A stretch of DNA of 52,934 bases from a virus (IMGVR_UViG_3300011126_000153:1-52934); one strand, 5' to 3'; positions 1-52,934 are shown, counted from the first letter of the stretch. The notes: generated by a model not told the origin, from the letters alone. Numbers and translations are program-made.

Positions 1-21
1 GACGACAACCAATATCAGAGA
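1..21. repeat. Terminal overlap copy 1 (circular assembly)
   Basis: GACGACAACCAATATCAGAGA is identical to 52914-52934; the capsid ORF is continuous across the join. Confidence 0.97.
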
Positions 22-630
22 CAATTCCCTGAAAATACTAGGTCACTTAAGTGTTCATTAGCTACTACTAAAAATACTTTTGGTGCTAATATTTTGAACA
101 ATGCTTTTAATCCAGCTCACTCTATCGGAGATGGTCAACCTGTATGTTCAAGGAATCATCCAATTGATGGCGGAGTATACTCTAATTCATTAGAAGGACA
201 GGCTACGGTTGACTTTAGTGAAGCAGGTGTAGAACAAGCTATCATTGAGATACAAAAATTCCCTATGCAAAGTGGTATTTTATCTCAAACTATGCCTAAA
301 AAGCTAATACTACCACGTGAGCTGCAATTTGCAGCATCAAGACTCTTAGATTCTAAGTTTCGTGTGGATGTAGCCAACAATGATATAAACGCTTTATATC
401 ATAATGATTACATTCCCGGTGGCTACAAAATCAACCAATATCTTACTTCACCCTCTGCTTGGTTCTTACTTACTGATGCAGAAGATGGGCTAAAGCATTT
501 TCAAAGATCTGCTGTTGAAACTGATACATATGTTGATTTCGCAACAGATAACATCATGGTTAAGGCGACTGAAAGATATTCTTTCGGTGTGTCTAATCCT
601 CGTGGAATCTTTGGTTCACCTGGAGTTTAA
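1..630 (+). CDS. Major capsid protein, 3' part (gene starts at 52638 and wraps; about 301 aa in total)
   Basis: Frame open from base 1 (DDNQYQRQFPEN...); motifs GDGQPVCSRNHP, PKKLILPREL, YLTSPSAWFL and ERYSFGVSNPRGIFGSPG are typical of HK97-fold capsids of the Mu gpT-like family. Confidence 0.9.
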   Translation, partial: DDNQYQRQFPENTRSLKCSLATTKNTFGANILNNAFNPAHSIGDGQPVCSRNHPIDGGVYSNSLEGQATVDFSEAGVEQAIIEIQKFPMQSGILSQTMPKKLILPRELQFAASRLLDSKFRVDVANNDINALYHNDYIPGGYKINQYLTSPSAWFLLTDAEDGLKHFQRSAVETDTYVDFATDNIMVKATERYSFGVSNPRGIFGSPGV

Positions 631-641
631 TAATTAAGCTT

Positions 642-676
642 AAGCAGCCTCGGACTCATTCCCTCCGAGGTTGTTT
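642..676 (+). terminator. Intrinsic terminator-like hairpin after the capsid gene
   Basis: AAGCAGCCTCGGA-9nt-TCCGAGGTTGTTT. Confidence 0.7.
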
Positions 677-699
677 ATATCGTTGAATAAGGTGTATTA

Positions 700-1359
700 A
701 TGACAGTATTTACAAAATTAAAATGGCCAGTACAGGATCTATCGGCTGTGTCTGCTTTGCAGGATGTGCTTATACCTGGTGATTTGCTATTAAATGGTAC
801 TTTGCTTAATCCCGATATTCCCGATCAAATCTCTTTTATTAGAGCAAGAATGATAAGATCTGTATCGCTTACTTCTATTAATGATTTAAGCCTTACGAAT
901 TTTATTATTACTGGGCTACAAAATGGTGGGTATGTATCAGAGACCATTAGTGGCCCTAACAATAATACAGTATATGGCACGAAATATTATGACACTATAA
1001 CGTCAGTAGTAGCTAGTACAGCAGTCTCAGGTATTCAAGCTGGCACTGGTGATGCTGGATTTTTACCATTATTGGAAATTAACACTATAGCAAATACTAT
1101 TAATTATTCTGCTCAAGTGTTATTGCCAGTAGGTTCTACTATTAATTATTCGTTATTTCAAACGCTAGATCAGATTAATAATAACTTTATTCCTTTTTTG
1201 AATCAGACGGCGCAATTATTCCCGGCTTTTGGACTTGCGAATGAAACGACCTCACAACTAGCTAATTCATTATTAATCACTAATTTTGTTCTATTAAAAG
1301 TGAATAGTTCTCTATTGCCTATTACAGATACTTTCGAATTTATATTATTACAGGAGTAA
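700..1359 (+). CDS. Virion structural protein, paralogue of 1362..2033
   Basis: Follows the capsid gene; shares LxLNG, RSxSLTSxN, GxQNG and ISGPNNNTV with the next ORF. Confidence 0.7.
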   Translation: MTVFTKLKWPVQDLSAVSALQDVLIPGDLLLNGTLLNPDIPDQISFIRARMIRSVSLTSINDLSLTNFIITGLQNGGYVSETISGPNNNTVYGTKYYDTITSVVASTAVSGIQAGTGDAGFLPLLEINTIANTINYSAQVLLPVGSTINYSLFQTLDQINNNFIPFLNQTAQLFPAFGLANETTSQLANSLLITNFVLLKVNSSLLPITDTFEFILLQE

Positions 1360-1361
1360 AC

Positions 1362-2033
1362 ATGTCAAGAAATTTAGAATACACATTTCCAGCAGCTAAT
1401 GAAGAAGATGTTTGCTTATTACAGGATACAGACGGCGGAGGTGATCCGCTTAAATTAAATGGTTTTCTAGTAAACTCTACTGGGGCAAAAGTATCGTTCC
1501 TAGAACGAGGTTATAGCCGTTCTCTTTCATTGACATCGGTTAATAATCTAGCCGCGGCACAATTCTTTGTGAATGGTATTCAGAACGGGGTGGAAATTCA
1601 AGAAATTATATCGGGGCCTAATAACAACACTGTTTTTACCACCGAAGTTTTTGATGAAATTACACGTGTTTTTGTTGGCCCAGCAGTTCAAGATATTAGC
1701 ATAGGTACAGGTGTAGATGGGTATTTTCCATTAATTGGAATAAATCTAGAAAGACCAGTGATAGATTATGCATTAAGTCTTGCTACATTTAATCGAACCG
1801 GAATTGTAACTATTATTTACGCTACGTTAGATGATATTCAGGAAAATGGCGAATCATATAACGATAATATAATAAATAACAAAAATTTAATTATATTAAA
1901 GCCAGCTAGTACTGAGAATAATTATATATTACCTCCTGAGGATGTAAGGATATATAAATCCTTATTAATAGAAATAATAGGTACTATATTAGATATAGAT
2001 GATGAAATTCAAATGAAATTTATACAAAGTTAA
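1362..2033 (+). CDS. Virion structural protein, paralogue of 700..1359
   Basis: Same shared motifs; RBS AGGAG upstream. Confidence 0.7.
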   Translation: MSRNLEYTFPAANEEDVCLLQDTDGGGDPLKLNGFLVNSTGAKVSFLERGYSRSLSLTSVNNLAAAQFFVNGIQNGVEIQEIISGPNNNTVFTTEVFDEITRVFVGPAVQDISIGTGVDGYFPLIGINLERPVIDYALSLATFNRTGIVTIIYATLDDIQENGESYNDNIINNKNLIILKPASTENNYILPPEDVRIYKSLLIEIIGTILDIDDEIQMKFIQS

Positions 2034-2042
2034 GGAGGAATT

Positions 2043-51534: not shown

Positions 51535-51583
51535 GGCTTTTTAATTTTTTAATAGAAGTTTTTCTTAAAAGTTATAAAAGCCT
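51534..51583 (+). terminator. Imperfect hairpin after 50062
   Basis: AGGCTTTT...AAAAGCCT. Confidence 0.45.
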
Positions 51584-51627
51584 GATACAATATATAAATA
51601 AGTAGAAAACGCTTAGTTTACTACAAA

Positions 51628-51800
51628 TTAGTTCTACGAAACTTAAAATCGTATTTTTTATCACTTTCCACAAAGTGATTGTCAGACGAGACATTAAAGC
51701 GTCCTAAATAGGTCAGAATATATCCCTTTAAATATCACCCCAGTTTTGCGAAACTAACAAAAAAATCGCATTCGGTTTCAAGGTCTATCCTCAAAAGATT
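51628..51800 (+). ncRNA. Structured leader of the capsid operon with three copies of hairpin A and two of hairpin B
   Basis: A: 51635-51653, 51685-51703, 51747-51770; B: 51660-51679, 51784-51798. Confidence 0.6.
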
Positions 51801-51839
51801 TTATTTTTATTTTAATAATTAAATCATAAGAGGTTTTTT

Positions 51840-52610
51840 ATGGCTAACGGAACTAACGCGCCTTTTGGGCTGCGACCTTACTCTTCTATCAGCGGTGGAA
51901 GTTGGACGGAAAAAACAAACGAATATTTCATTTACGCAGATGCTGCTGGCACAACTACATATGATGAAAGTATATTTACTGGAGATCCTGTAATTCTAAA
52001 CCCAATCGGGGTAAATAATGTCTTAGAAGGCCCAACTATTGCCAATTATACTATATTTAATGGCACGGTAGCAAATGAAGACCAACCAATTTTGGGTGTT
52101 TTTATGGGGTGTGAATATGAATCAACTGTAGTTGGTACAAACAATTTAATCAAATCTCCTTTTTGGCCTGCTAGTTCACAAGTTGTGGCTGGTAGTAAAA
52201 TCAAAGCATTCGTATTAGATGATCCAGATGTTGTTTACGAGATTCAGGTTTCTACTGCAACTAATGTGTTAGTTGATGCCACATTCAGTCCTGCTGCTAC
52301 AACGGCAGCGTATTTTTTCCAAAATTTCGCTTTTGGACGTGCAGGTGGTGGTGCAAATTTAATACCAAATAACCCTACAACTGGTTCTACTAGAAGCGGT
52401 CAATCGGCAGTTTACTTAAATATTGTAGGAACTGTTGCTACGGACAGAACGGCAGCGACATTGCCTCTTAAAGTAATAGGCTTTACTCCTGATCCAGAGA
52501 ATGTGGTTTTAGATCCAGTTACTCAGGCTGTCAGACCATTTTTAAATGTACGTGTCACGATTAATAATCACTTATTTCGTGTAGGTAATTTGGCTGAAGC
52601 GCTGATTTAA
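51840..52610 (+). CDS. Putative capsid decoration/minor capsid protein
   Basis: MANGTNAPFGLRP..IFTGDPV..GVFMGCEY..DDPDVVYEIQ; immediately upstream of the capsid gene. Confidence 0.75.
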   Translation: MANGTNAPFGLRPYSSISGGSWTEKTNEYFIYADAAGTTTYDESIFTGDPVILNPIGVNNVLEGPTIANYTIFNGTVANEDQPILGVFMGCEYESTVVGTNNLIKSPFWPASSQVVAGSKIKAFVLDDPDVVYEIQVSTATNVLVDATFSPAATTAAYFFQNFAFGRAGGGANLIPNNPTTGSTRSGQSAVYLNIVGTVATDRTAATLPLKVIGFTPDPENVVLDPVTQAVRPFLNVRVTINNHLFRVGNLAEALI

Positions 52611-52637
52611 TAAAACAATAAATAAAAGGAAAAAATT

Positions 52638-52913
52638 ATGATTAATACTGGTCAGATTTCGACACTATTACGCCCAGCCTTACAAGCGGTTTTTGGGCTA
52701 TCTAAACCATACCCCGATCAATGGGAAGAAATATTTAAAACTCATCAATCTAATTTATATCAAGAAATTGATGTAGAAATGAAGTATTTAGGAGCTGCTG
52801 ATGTTAAGGCTGAAGGCGCAGCAATAGCGACTGATTCTATGGGCCAACGTAACATTAACACCTACGTGCACAGAAGGGTCGGATTGAGTTTTGTGATCAC
52901 CCGCGAGGCCATC
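52638..52913 (+). CDS. Major capsid protein, 5' part (continues at base 1)
   Basis: AAGGA RBS; MINTGQISTLLRPALQAVFG...KAEGAAIATDS...GLSFVITREAI open to the window end. Confidence 0.9.
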
Positions 52914-52934
52914 GACGACAACCAATATCAGAGA
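52914..52934. repeat. Terminal overlap copy 2
   Basis: Identical to 1-21. Confidence 0.97.

Follow-up and report, generated by a model that had tools for sequence, protein, structure and literature searches.

A probable phage of Rickettsiales endosymbionts combining podoviral virion genes with a Rickettsia/Megaera-type replicon

We analysed the viral record IMGVR_UViG_3300011126_000153, a single contig of 52,934 nucleotides (nt) that we call the window, meaning this whole stretch at its full length. We consider it likely to be the complete genome of a tailed phage in which podoviral virion genes are joined to a plasmid replicon of the Rickettsia/Megaera type, and whose host would be a Rickettsiales endosymbiont. 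Sequence comparison places it in a well-supported clade whose named members are plasmids of Megaera (Megaira) polyxenophila, and these Megaera 'plasmids' include full phage genomes. To our knowledge, hardly any phages have been described from obligate intracellular Rickettsiales, namely WO of Wolbachia and a single reported phage of Megaira, and in these bacteria both gene flow and genetic tools depend mainly on mobile elements. For the analysis we defined 77 open reading frame (ORF) entries, the capsid gene being counted as two, and Pfam scans covered 70 of the 77.

Genome closure and kinship with Megaera plasmids

The first and last 21 nt of the record are identical, an exact terminal repeat that leaves a unique length of 52,913 nt, and IMG/VR classes the record under 'direct terminal repeats' with a CheckV completeness of 100%. 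An ORF open at its 3' end (52638-52934, plus strand) reads in frame across the junction into an ORF open at its 5' end (1-630, plus strand), and the two encode the N-terminal and C-terminal parts of the major capsid protein. The N-terminal part is 35-38% identical to the capsid genes of Megaera plasmids and of the pelagiphage HTVC023P, and the C-terminal part (phrog_371, E 2.9e-5) is 42-44% identical to the capsids of pPCS109, HTVC023P and CRP-902. On the Megaera plasmid CP113869.1 the two halves match adjoining, slightly overlapping stretches (8242-8532 and 8518-9153 of the fetched part) of a single annotated gene; the junction is therefore real and no assembly accident, and the complete circular genome closing through its capsid gene, which the original prediction had proposed, is borne out. 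One Logan contig (n=1, run X2) reaches 204 nt past window position 1; the DNA may be a circle or a linear molecule that is circularly permuted or concatemeric. The sequence is present in three runs of one sample, labelled marine sediment metagenome, with no RNA run listed, and its GC content along the contig ranges from 0.30 to 0.42. Over window positions 1-3000, runs X1-X3 yield several contigs of sizeable depth whose substitutions cluster around 960-1030 and 1085-1128, which indicates co-existing phage strains in the sample.

The large terminase subunit (TerL; 42870-44492, plus strand; phrog_38, E 1e-84) is 49.5-50.8% identical to its counterparts on three Megaera polyxenophila plasmids, the top three matches in PLSDB. 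In the phage collection (2,363 matching records) its best matches are the Roseobacter phages CRP-902 (39.6%) and CRP-901 (39.2%), followed by phages of Paracoccus, Rhizobium and Pelagibacter. The Megaera relatives are closed circular plasmid records. One of them, CP113869.1 ('unnamed2' of strain NDG2 from Euplotes woodruffi, 64.4 kb), has counterparts of 26 of the 77 ORF entries, and these matches span the whole virion module together with the recombinase RecT, the initiator Rep1 and a DUF1640-like gene, at identities of 42% for the portal, 44% for the capsid, 48% for Rep1 and 72% for RecT. In AP017967.1 (pPCS109, 109 kb) a 41.5-kb stretch matches 18 of the 77 entries, and here the module lies inside a plasmid full of transposases. 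Gene order is conserved as well: in the window and the Megaera plasmids alike, an outer-membrane gene stands beside TerL, portal, GroES-like, capsid, adaptor and large virion protein genes, and RecT/YqaJ, Rep and the DUF1640-like gene are common to the window, CP113869.1 and pPCS109 in the same order, the matching ORF entries as a whole being 25-72% identical.

The relatives also differ from the window in content. The Megaera plasmids carry ParA, toxin-antitoxin genes, insertion sequence elements, group II introns, methylases and patatin, none of which was found in the window ORFs scanned (CP113869.1 itself has ParA, MazEF, BrnT, IS256 and group II introns), whereas two Rep paralogues, a tRNA-Gln, leucine-rich-repeat (LRR) proteins and a block of paralogous small genes are found in the window and are absent from the Megaera plasmids. 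The outer-membrane protein (OMP) beside TerL belongs to different families, a 239-aa barrel in the window versus a 426-aa 'porin' in Megaera, with no tblastn match between the two. A further replicon of Megaera NDG2, CP113870.1 ('unnamed3'), has kept TerL, Rep, RecT, YqaJ and ParA while the rest of the virion module is gone, and it has, besides, genes for a primase-helicase and a family-B polymerase and two giant genes resembling SecA, which gives it the look of a relative that has decayed or recombined.

The terminase phylogeny agrees with this kinship. In a tree of 23 rows (LG+G4), which holds all fetched TerLs except that of G001, cut by record ends, the window falls into a clade of 15 rows (support 100/100) with three Megaera plasmids, a Rickettsiales metagenome-assembled genome (MAG) and a Rickettsiaceae MAG, and both CRP-902 and HTVC027P lie outside it. 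Within the clade, a tight group of 11 rows holds the three Megaera plasmids and the Rickettsiales MAG, the window pairs with a contig labelled Bacteroidota (98/93) that is joined by the Rickettsiaceae contig (88/63), and there is one further viral contig. As the window TerL is only about 50% identical to those of the Megaera plasmids, its branch is best described as a sister subclade. The nearest TerL (65%) lies on a 10.9-kb contig, G164:C16, of a MAG labelled Bacteroidota; this contig also carries an OMP (51%) and has the same order of candidate small terminase subunit, OMP and TerL, and the MAG holds a Rep (35%). The second-nearest (59%) belongs to a Rickettsiaceae MAG, on a contig of 32.5 kb that also has a Rep (33%) and ParA. 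A 22-kb viral contig (L004) is collinear with the window at 56-93% identity.

Two side observations concern more distant terminases. A second, different TerL (about 30-33% identity) occurs in a Rickettsiaceae MAG (G165:C49, L107) and an Alphaproteobacteria MAG (G163:C123, L105), and in the tree both fall next to HTVC027P and 023Pt_psg01; genomes of this kind may have a further phage type linked to them. NZ_CP133271.1, a 57.5-kb replicon of Candidatus Bealeia paramacronuclearis (a Holosporales symbiont of Paramecium), gives a TerL match of 29% over 92% of the query and may be another endosymbiont phage-plasmid.

A Rep profile search returned 57 loci in IMG/VR and 26 loci in species-representative genomes. 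All ten large Rep-bearing records tested also have a TerL, at 49-52% identity, and the combination of Rep and virion genes is therefore a trait of the lineage and not peculiar to the window. The original prediction of a podoviral chassis joined to a rickettsial plasmid replicon is right as far as the combination goes, but the joining belongs to the whole lineage, including the plasmids resident in Megaera, and not to the window alone. Many relatives of 50-60 kb with terminal repeats have been recovered as viral contigs.

The virion module and the replication initiators

The virion genes form a long plus-strand block that starts at 41.5 kb, crosses the junction and ends at 18.4 kb, in which the ORFs from TerL to 15932-18148 are intact, closely packed and on a single strand. 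The full virion module that had been read from the sequence was recovered, with TerL, portal, capsid, adaptors and virion proteins all matched, and the widespread podovirus lineage with GroES to which it had been likened is that of the HTVC023P/CRP-901 type. The portal protein (45016-47664, plus strand) matches phrog_1216 (E 3e-17) and is 31% identical to that of HTVC023P over 88% of its length; no Pfam family matched it, and the label 'P22-like' given to it earlier is unconfirmed. The 3' part of the portal gene (47197-47607) contains four copies of a repeat of about 87 nt, 67-73% identical, which form a repeated C-terminal extension of the 882-aa portal. Between the portal and capsid genes, as in the HTVC023P/CRP-901 type, sits a GroES-like gene (48104-48583, plus strand), which scores 17.5 bits against Cpn10, below the cut-off of 21.1, and is homologous to the annotated GroES genes of CP113869.1, HTVC023P (29%) and CRP-902 (27%), within a range of 27-30%. 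The ORF at 47668-47973, previously taken for GroES, has no Pfam or PHROG match and was rejected.

The remaining head-module ORFs (48601-52610, plus strand) begin at 48601, 49625, 50062 and 51840; the first, third and fourth are conserved in CP113869.1 and pPCS109, and ORF 51840, directly upstream of the capsid gene and 29% identical to HTVC023P gp39, is probably the scaffold. Beyond the capsid lie two paralogous ORFs (700-1359 and 1362-2033, together 700-2033, plus strand) without a Pfam or PHROG family, both of which match one CP113869.1 gene at 32-34% identity. They are followed by an adaptor-like protein with a discoidin-like region (2253-3308, plus strand), which scores 29.6 bits against SU10_adaptor (cut-off 27) and 26.3 bits, below the cut-off, against F5_F8_type_C, and which is 43% identical over 91 aa to the 'tail adaptor' of CRP-902. 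The plus-strand ORFs at 3317, 3663, 4336, 5706, 7084, 7350, 7629, 8101, 8506 and 9742 (3317-11904) probably encode tail, fibre and other virion proteins, as judged mostly by position; ORFs 4336 and 5706 have weak tail-fibre PHROG matches, and ORFs 3317, 4336, 8101, 8506 and 9742 have homologues in CP113869.1. An SU10-type adaptor or virion structural protein (11906-12547, plus strand) matches SU10_adaptor over its full length (68.9 bits, cut-off 27) and phrog_2941 (E 2e-23). Four large virion proteins (ORFs 12547, 14130, 14424 and 15932; 12547-18148, plus strand; phrog_3287, E 8e-26, for the first) are presumed internal or ejection proteins, and all four are kept in CP113869.1 (27-40% identity) and L004 (56-77%).

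At the other end of the block, an ORF upstream of OMP and TerL (41563-42066, plus strand) is a candidate small terminase subunit (TerS) by position only; it has no Pfam or PHROG family, and G164:C16 has an ORF in the same position with 28% identity. PHROG scans of the virion ORFs gave no sheath, tube or credible tape-measure match, which, together with the two SU10-type adaptors, indirectly fits a short tail. We also observed a 24-nt motif with palindromic arms (core TACGAAACTTAAAATCGTA) in three copies (5625-5648, 8017-8040 and 51632-51655), with 0 expected by chance. Each copy is intergenic, lies upstream of a virion-module gene (5706, 8101 and 51840, respectively) and is followed by a conserved CCAYAAA; the motif may be a late-gene operator or promoter element.

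The replicon is represented by two initiators. Rep1 (23088-24347, plus strand) is a plasmid-type initiator of the Rickettsia/Megaera 'DnaA-like' family without a Pfam DnaA_N domain, and Rep2 (26348-27613, plus strand) is a paralogue that combines the Rep N-terminal domain with a C-terminal DnaA_N-like region and lacks the central Rep domain. Over some 100 aa at their N-termini the two have a domain in common (34% identity, E 3e-13); neither has a Pfam or PHROG match, and a PDB sequence search gave nothing meaningful. Among the 72,556 plasmids of PLSDB, Rep1 matches 35 records, comprising 24 from Rickettsia and 11 from Candidatus Megaera/Megaira, and it has 0 matches among the 50,697 phage records of INPHARED, which, with 17 of the 26 genome loci being labelled Rickettsiales, gives the Rep the taxonomy expected of it. 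The best PLSDB matches reach 39% identity over 99% of Rep1 (annotated DnaA) and 48% over 73%, and residues of about 190-415 match 'DnaA N-terminal domain-containing' proteins of Rickettsia (24 records) at 24-32% identity and E 1e-3 to 1e-10. Rep1 has 184 homologous protein clusters, many of those listed being on 50-62 kb contigs; among the 120 listed, three bear an organism name (a Rickettsiales MAG, a Megaera plasmid and a Paraclostridium MAG) and eight have a fused Pfam DnaA_N domain. Its central domain (the HYPL...NAMNEILL region) is present, with invariant columns in an alignment of 30 sequences.

Rep2 was matched in PLSDB solely through its N-terminal domain, in three Megaera records, and its family comprises nine further relatives. 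When the Rep2-family profile was compared by hhalign with a profile of eight DnaA_N-bearing Reps, both ends aligned and the central domain was skipped (probability 99.3, E 2.4e-20), and the Rep2 C-terminus also aligns by BLAST with that of P0024, a DnaA_N-bearing Rep (E 4e-5). The resemblance to the DnaA-like Rep proteins of Rickettsia plasmids that had been suggested for both initiators thus holds for Rep1 alone, and Rep2 has in common with the Rep family just the N-terminal domain and the DnaA_N-like C-terminus. AlphaFold (AF2) models show a winged-helix-like N-domain in both proteins and C-terminal modules of alpha-alpha-beta-beta-alpha-beta order, one in Rep1 and two in Rep2. Taken together, Rep1 and Rep2 would be trimmed paralogues of a longer plasmid initiator that jointly cover its domain set. 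The parA and dnaA-like region of pRAM18 and pRAM32, both among the Rep1-matched plasmids, has been reported to yield autonomously replicating shuttle vectors (PMC3244465).

In the mechanism that we propose, Rep1 would bind the origin through its winged-helix domains, and Rep2, with its Rep1-type N-terminal domain and an end resembling DnaA domain I, would help to bring in the helicase and replisome of the host, since the phage lacks polymerase, helicase and primase genes of its own. The single-strand DNA-binding protein, RecT/YqaJ and resolvase would process replication intermediates, and the terminase would package DNA from concatemers. The host would most probably be a Rickettsiaceae-like endosymbiont of a eukaryote, in which the LRR proteins and the outer-membrane barrel may act as accessory genes suited to that setting, and the window itself may be a ParA-less derivative that is poorly maintained as a plasmid, persists at high copy or lives mainly by lysis.

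Lifestyle, host and rival explanations

Several results weigh against this reading, in its replicon, its lifestyle and its host. Concerning the replicon, Pfam DnaA_N (PF11638) has no match in the window at E<=10, nor on the Rep2 C-terminus alone; P0024 and P0002, taken as controls, reach 39.7 and 34.6 bits. The AF2 models of both initiators are mediocre (pLDDT, the predicted local distance difference test, 62 each), and Foldseek gave no match to either at E<=1e-3; the weak top matches were the N-domain of a staphylococcal plasmid initiator (4pql, E 0.009), DnaA domain I (4tps_D, probability 0.98, template-modelling score 0.62) and the helicase loader DciA (8a3v_C, probability 0.96). Repeat searches for an origin or iterons in 22300-26400 and in the AT-rich 39.4-42.2 kb gave short two-copy matches only. 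The Pfam scans of 70 ORF entries recognised no gene for lysis. The window is also without ParA and without a recognised toxin-antitoxin or partition gene.

This last point bears on how the phage lives. When all six frames of the entire record were scanned, none of Phage_integrase, Resolvase, CbiA/ParA, DNA_pol_A and DnaB_C had a match at E<=0.1, the positive controls being detected (CbiA/ParA in 14 of 14 genomes), and the Pfam scans of the ORF entries found none of these either, in accordance with the original prediction that integrase, polymerase and ParA would not be recognisable. Three Megaera-plasmid ParA proteins have no tblastn match in the window at E<=1, whereas both nearest TerL relatives match and have ParA homologues. 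Among complete relatives ParA lies above the Pfam cut-off in five of five and an integrase is present in one of five, and on this ground the lineage looks like one of phage-plasmids, with a gene set of virion genes, plasmid Rep and ParA, usually without an integrase. The window has the complete virion and packaging set and the plasmid-type initiator and no integrase, as proposed for a phage-plasmid, but it has no ParA though its relatives do; its own plasmid state is therefore uncertain, and the term applies more securely to its kin than to the window itself.

The same lineage and kind of host could thus go with an obligately lytic or transiently episomal genome, from which partition has been lost and in which Rep1 and Rep2 serve lytic replication only. 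We give this a modest chance. The lack of ParA, integrase and resolvase in six frames is what one would expect of it, as is the missing tblastn match to ParA that the nearest relatives do have, and the authors of CRP-901 and CRP-902 judged those phages strictly lytic for want of lysogeny genes (PMC10149686). Yet the window retains an XRE regulator with two helix-turn-helix (HTH) domains, a MarR-type regulator divergent from Rep1 and a ribbon-helix-helix protein, it carries two LRR proteins and an OMP, accessory kinds usual in temperate elements, and the presence of ParA in all five complete relatives also speaks against a lytic habit; a partition system other than ParA could hide among the unassigned ORFs. 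Between an episomal prophage state and a mainly lytic life of the window itself, the evidence seems to us about evenly balanced.

For the host, homology points to Rickettsiales, which we regard as probable. Every closed, named replicon with Rep or a close TerL in PLSDB belongs to Rickettsia or Megaera/Megaira. The small putative outer-membrane beta-barrel that adjoins the terminase (OMP; 42135-42854, plus strand) matches 25 of 151 genomes in a Rickettsiales sample, the best at 79 bits, nearly full length and 31-39% identity, and 59 of 151 genomes in the Hyphomicrobiales control, the best at 49 bits; in PLSDB its matches are confined to Rhizobiales-type genera (56-64 bits, 27-29% identity), which we count as contrary or neutral. 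The taxonomic leaning expected of the OMP was thus found. Of 28 homologous clusters, 24 have the OMP_b-brl domain (PF13505), but its own score of 21.7 bits lies below the cut-off of 28.7. The LRR_6 protein matches 41 of 151 Rickettsiales and 3 of 151 Hyphomicrobiales genomes. Both comparisons use one control order, and the source runs, marine sediment from one sample, are uninformative on a protist host. RecT is 72% identical to the RecT of four Megaera plasmids and 64% to a Klebsiella prophage Bet, and as a host marker it was rejected as weak.

A different host, such as another low-GC aquatic bacterium (Bacteroidota or another alphaproteobacterium) carrying the Rep as a mobile replicon that also occurs in Rickettsiaceae, is unlikely in our judgement, although several findings favour it. 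The closest TerL (65%), together with a Rep (35%), is in a MAG labelled Bacteroidota; nine of the 26 Rep loci are labelled otherwise than Rickettsiales (Polaribacter, Flavobacterium, Flavobacteriaceae, Bacteroidota, Saccharibacteria twice, Dojkabacteria, Alphaproteobacteria and Hyphomicrobiales), seven of the 26 falling under the non-proteobacterial labels Bacteroidota/Flavobacteriia, Saccharibacteria or Dojkabacteria; one of the named Rep1 clusters is that of Paraclostridium; the structural module is common to phages of Pelagibacter, Roseobacter, Caulobacter and cyanobacteria; and the sample is marine sediment. Set against this are the closed named replicons (35 of 35 for Rep and the top three of three TerL plasmids, all Rickettsia or Megaera/Megaira), the better match of OMP and LRR to Rickettsiales than to the control order, and the second-closest TerL, which is in a Rickettsiaceae MAG. 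The nine otherwise-labelled contigs, moreover, all derive from MAGs and are mostly short (seven of 1.9-11.5 kb, the others of 33.6 and 44.7 kb), and they may be binning errors of low-GC mobile contigs. The originally predicted Rickettsiales host therefore keeps the support of Rep, TerL, OMP and LRR homology, qualified by those nine labels.

That the window might be no infectious phage at all, and instead a plasmid with domesticated or defective virion genes, either similar to a gene-transfer agent or a decaying prophage-plasmid, we consider very improbable. Some relatives are indeed decaying, with CP113870.1 retaining TerL without the rest of the virion module and pPCS109 being rich in transposases, and the want of recognised lysis genes would also suit a defective element. 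In the window, by contrast, the virion ORFs are intact and packed on one strand, the record has terminal repeats and is 100% complete, the many 50-60 kb relatives are viral contigs with terminal repeats of their own, and no transposases or introns were found in the ORFs scanned with Pfam.

Returning to a phage with a Rickettsia/Megaera-type replicon in a Rickettsiales endosymbiont, one may go further. The window and its 50-60 kb relatives could constitute a large, undescribed phage-plasmid family specific to Rickettsiaceae-like protist endosymbionts; the Rep (and ParA) replicon of Rickettsia and Megaera plasmids would then be the same module, possibly descended from phages, and the window a ParA-less offshoot whose initiator has been split into origin-binding and helicase-recruiting paralogues. 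We hold this extended proposal to be rather doubtful. If it were true, virions would offer a route of gene flow for LRR effectors, porins, patatin and toxin-antitoxin genes between obligate intracellular bacteria. The clade comprises no fewer than 57 loci on viral contigs and 184 protein clusters, and if the host assignment holds, its members are candidates for horizontal transfer among protist endosymbionts, and non-pathogenic Rickettsiaceae could naturally draw on them for replicons and packaging systems.

Accessory genes and comparison with known systems

Downstream of the virion block lies a Holliday-junction resolvase (18145-18447, plus strand; phrog_190, E 8e-26), followed on the minus strand by the XRE-family regulator (18448-18927; HTH_3 74.5 bits in two stretches), a candidate repressor that does contain the motif QQIQKYE noted earlier. 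The eukaryote-like LRR protein (18978-19898, minus strand; LRR_6 150 bits in six stretches) has 28-aa repeats, corresponding to 84 nt in the DNA, and adjoins the recombination genes YqaJ exonuclease (19902-20555, minus strand; Pfam YqaJ 57.7 bits) and RecT/Bet recombinase (20530-21387, minus strand; Pfam RecT 86.1 bits). The MarR-type winged-helix regulator divergent from Rep1 lies at 22507-22809 (minus strand; MarR_2 34.2 bits). Between the two initiators are the tRNA-Gln with anticodon UUG (24353-24427, plus strand; found by ARAGORN, Rfam tRNA 62 bits), besides which the Rfam scan gave nothing, and a DUF1640/CCDC90-like small protein with a C-terminal hydrophobic tail (24887-25192, plus strand). 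The latter is only 28% identical to a gene annotated DUF1640 that adjoins the Rep of CP113869.1, and its score against PF07798 (18.9 bits) is below the cut-off of 33.5.

Beyond Rep2, an HTH_17 (excisionase/MerR-like) DNA-binding protein (27610-28179, plus strand) is a weak match (25 bits, cut-off 27; phrog_2907, E 0.0018), and a single-strand DNA-binding protein lies at 28852-29283 (plus strand; Pfam SSB 38.7 bits). In between, two tandem paralogous small genes (28176-28379 and 28417-28617, within window 28137-28617; repeats D8 and D13) have an upstream stretch of 48 nt that is 98% identical between the copies. A second LRR_6-type protein (30848-31519, minus strand; LRR_6 25.1 bits) has repeat family D1 in common with the first. 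The minus strand then carries a block of about 14 small ORFs (32135-37988; repeat families D3, D5, D10 and D11), most of them paralogous with a common N-terminus, MTK/N-D-LD-RK..., and with a C-terminal motif L-[TS]-D-[DE]-E-F. No Pfam family was found in the 12 of these ORFs scanned and no PHROG family in the three scanned, and partial matches to the block occur in L004 only. The ribbon-helix-helix protein follows at 38084-38326 (plus strand; 56B_RHH 36.1 bits).

The stretch 39400-41560 is low in GC (0.30), with long non-coding gaps, doubtful ORFs and several hairpins, and a 135-nt direct repeat lies in this AT-rich part (39817-39951 and 39992-40126). The nearest relative, G164:C16, has a ParA gene some 2.3 kb beyond its candidate TerS, and the stretch may be the site of lost partition genes or a cis-acting region. 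The OMP gene between TerS candidate and TerL is probably a moron gene. A dif arm that had been noted in the window is unconfirmed: with an enterobacterial consensus, which may not be the host's, the 23-mer with up to three mismatches gave 0 matches (0.00 expected) and the exact 11-mer arm also 0 (0.16 expected).

Among described phages, the closest system is the HTVC023P pelagiphage/CRP-901 roseophage type, which has homologous TerL (28-40%), portal (29-32%) and capsid (42-44% in the C-terminal half), a homologous GroES-like gene, adaptor and pre-capsid gene, and a similar genome size of 52-61 kb. In the fetched stretches, HTVC023P matches nine and CRP-902 six of the 77 ORF entries, all within the virion module. 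The replication module, in contrast, is not common to the two, the window's Rep being absent from the phage records searched, and the hosts of that type are free-living marine bacteria (Alphaproteobacteria; cultured podoviruses). The authors of CRP-901 describe such phages as abundant marine podoviruses with a structural module in common and differing replication modules (PMC10149686), and the HTVC023P type has been described under Podoviridae (PMC9599517).

On the plasmid side, the 'DnaA-like' proteins of Rickettsia plasmids (pRAM18, pRAM32, pRF and pRM) show a distant likeness covering about half of Rep1. Unlike those plasmids, the window has no parA adjoining Rep1 and no Pfam DnaA_N, and in the PLSDB searches the N-terminal domain of Rep1 and Rep2 matched Megaera plasmids and no Rickettsia plasmid.

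Two further phages belong in the comparison. Wolbachia phage WO is a tailed, integrating temperate phage of obligate intracellular Rickettsiales with eukaryote-like repeat proteins. The Megaira phage 'MAnkyphage' (George et al. 2023), as mentioned in PMC10925606, is likewise tailed, tied to Rickettsiales and equipped with eukaryote-like repeat proteins; since no INPHARED record has a TerL match above 39.6% or a Rep match, MAnkyphage, if it is in INPHARED, is not close kin of the window. Our literature search found no paper that treats the lineage as phages or phage-plasmids, the Megaira-phage paper and the supplements of papers lying outside that search, and a prior description is possible. 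The podovirus structural module, the plasmid Rep family and phage-plasmids as such are known already, and kin of the window stand in GenBank as Megaera 'plasmids', some with phage-flavoured product names; what the window adds to them is a divergent, complete, ParA-less member from sediment with a split initiator and eukaryote-like LRR genes.

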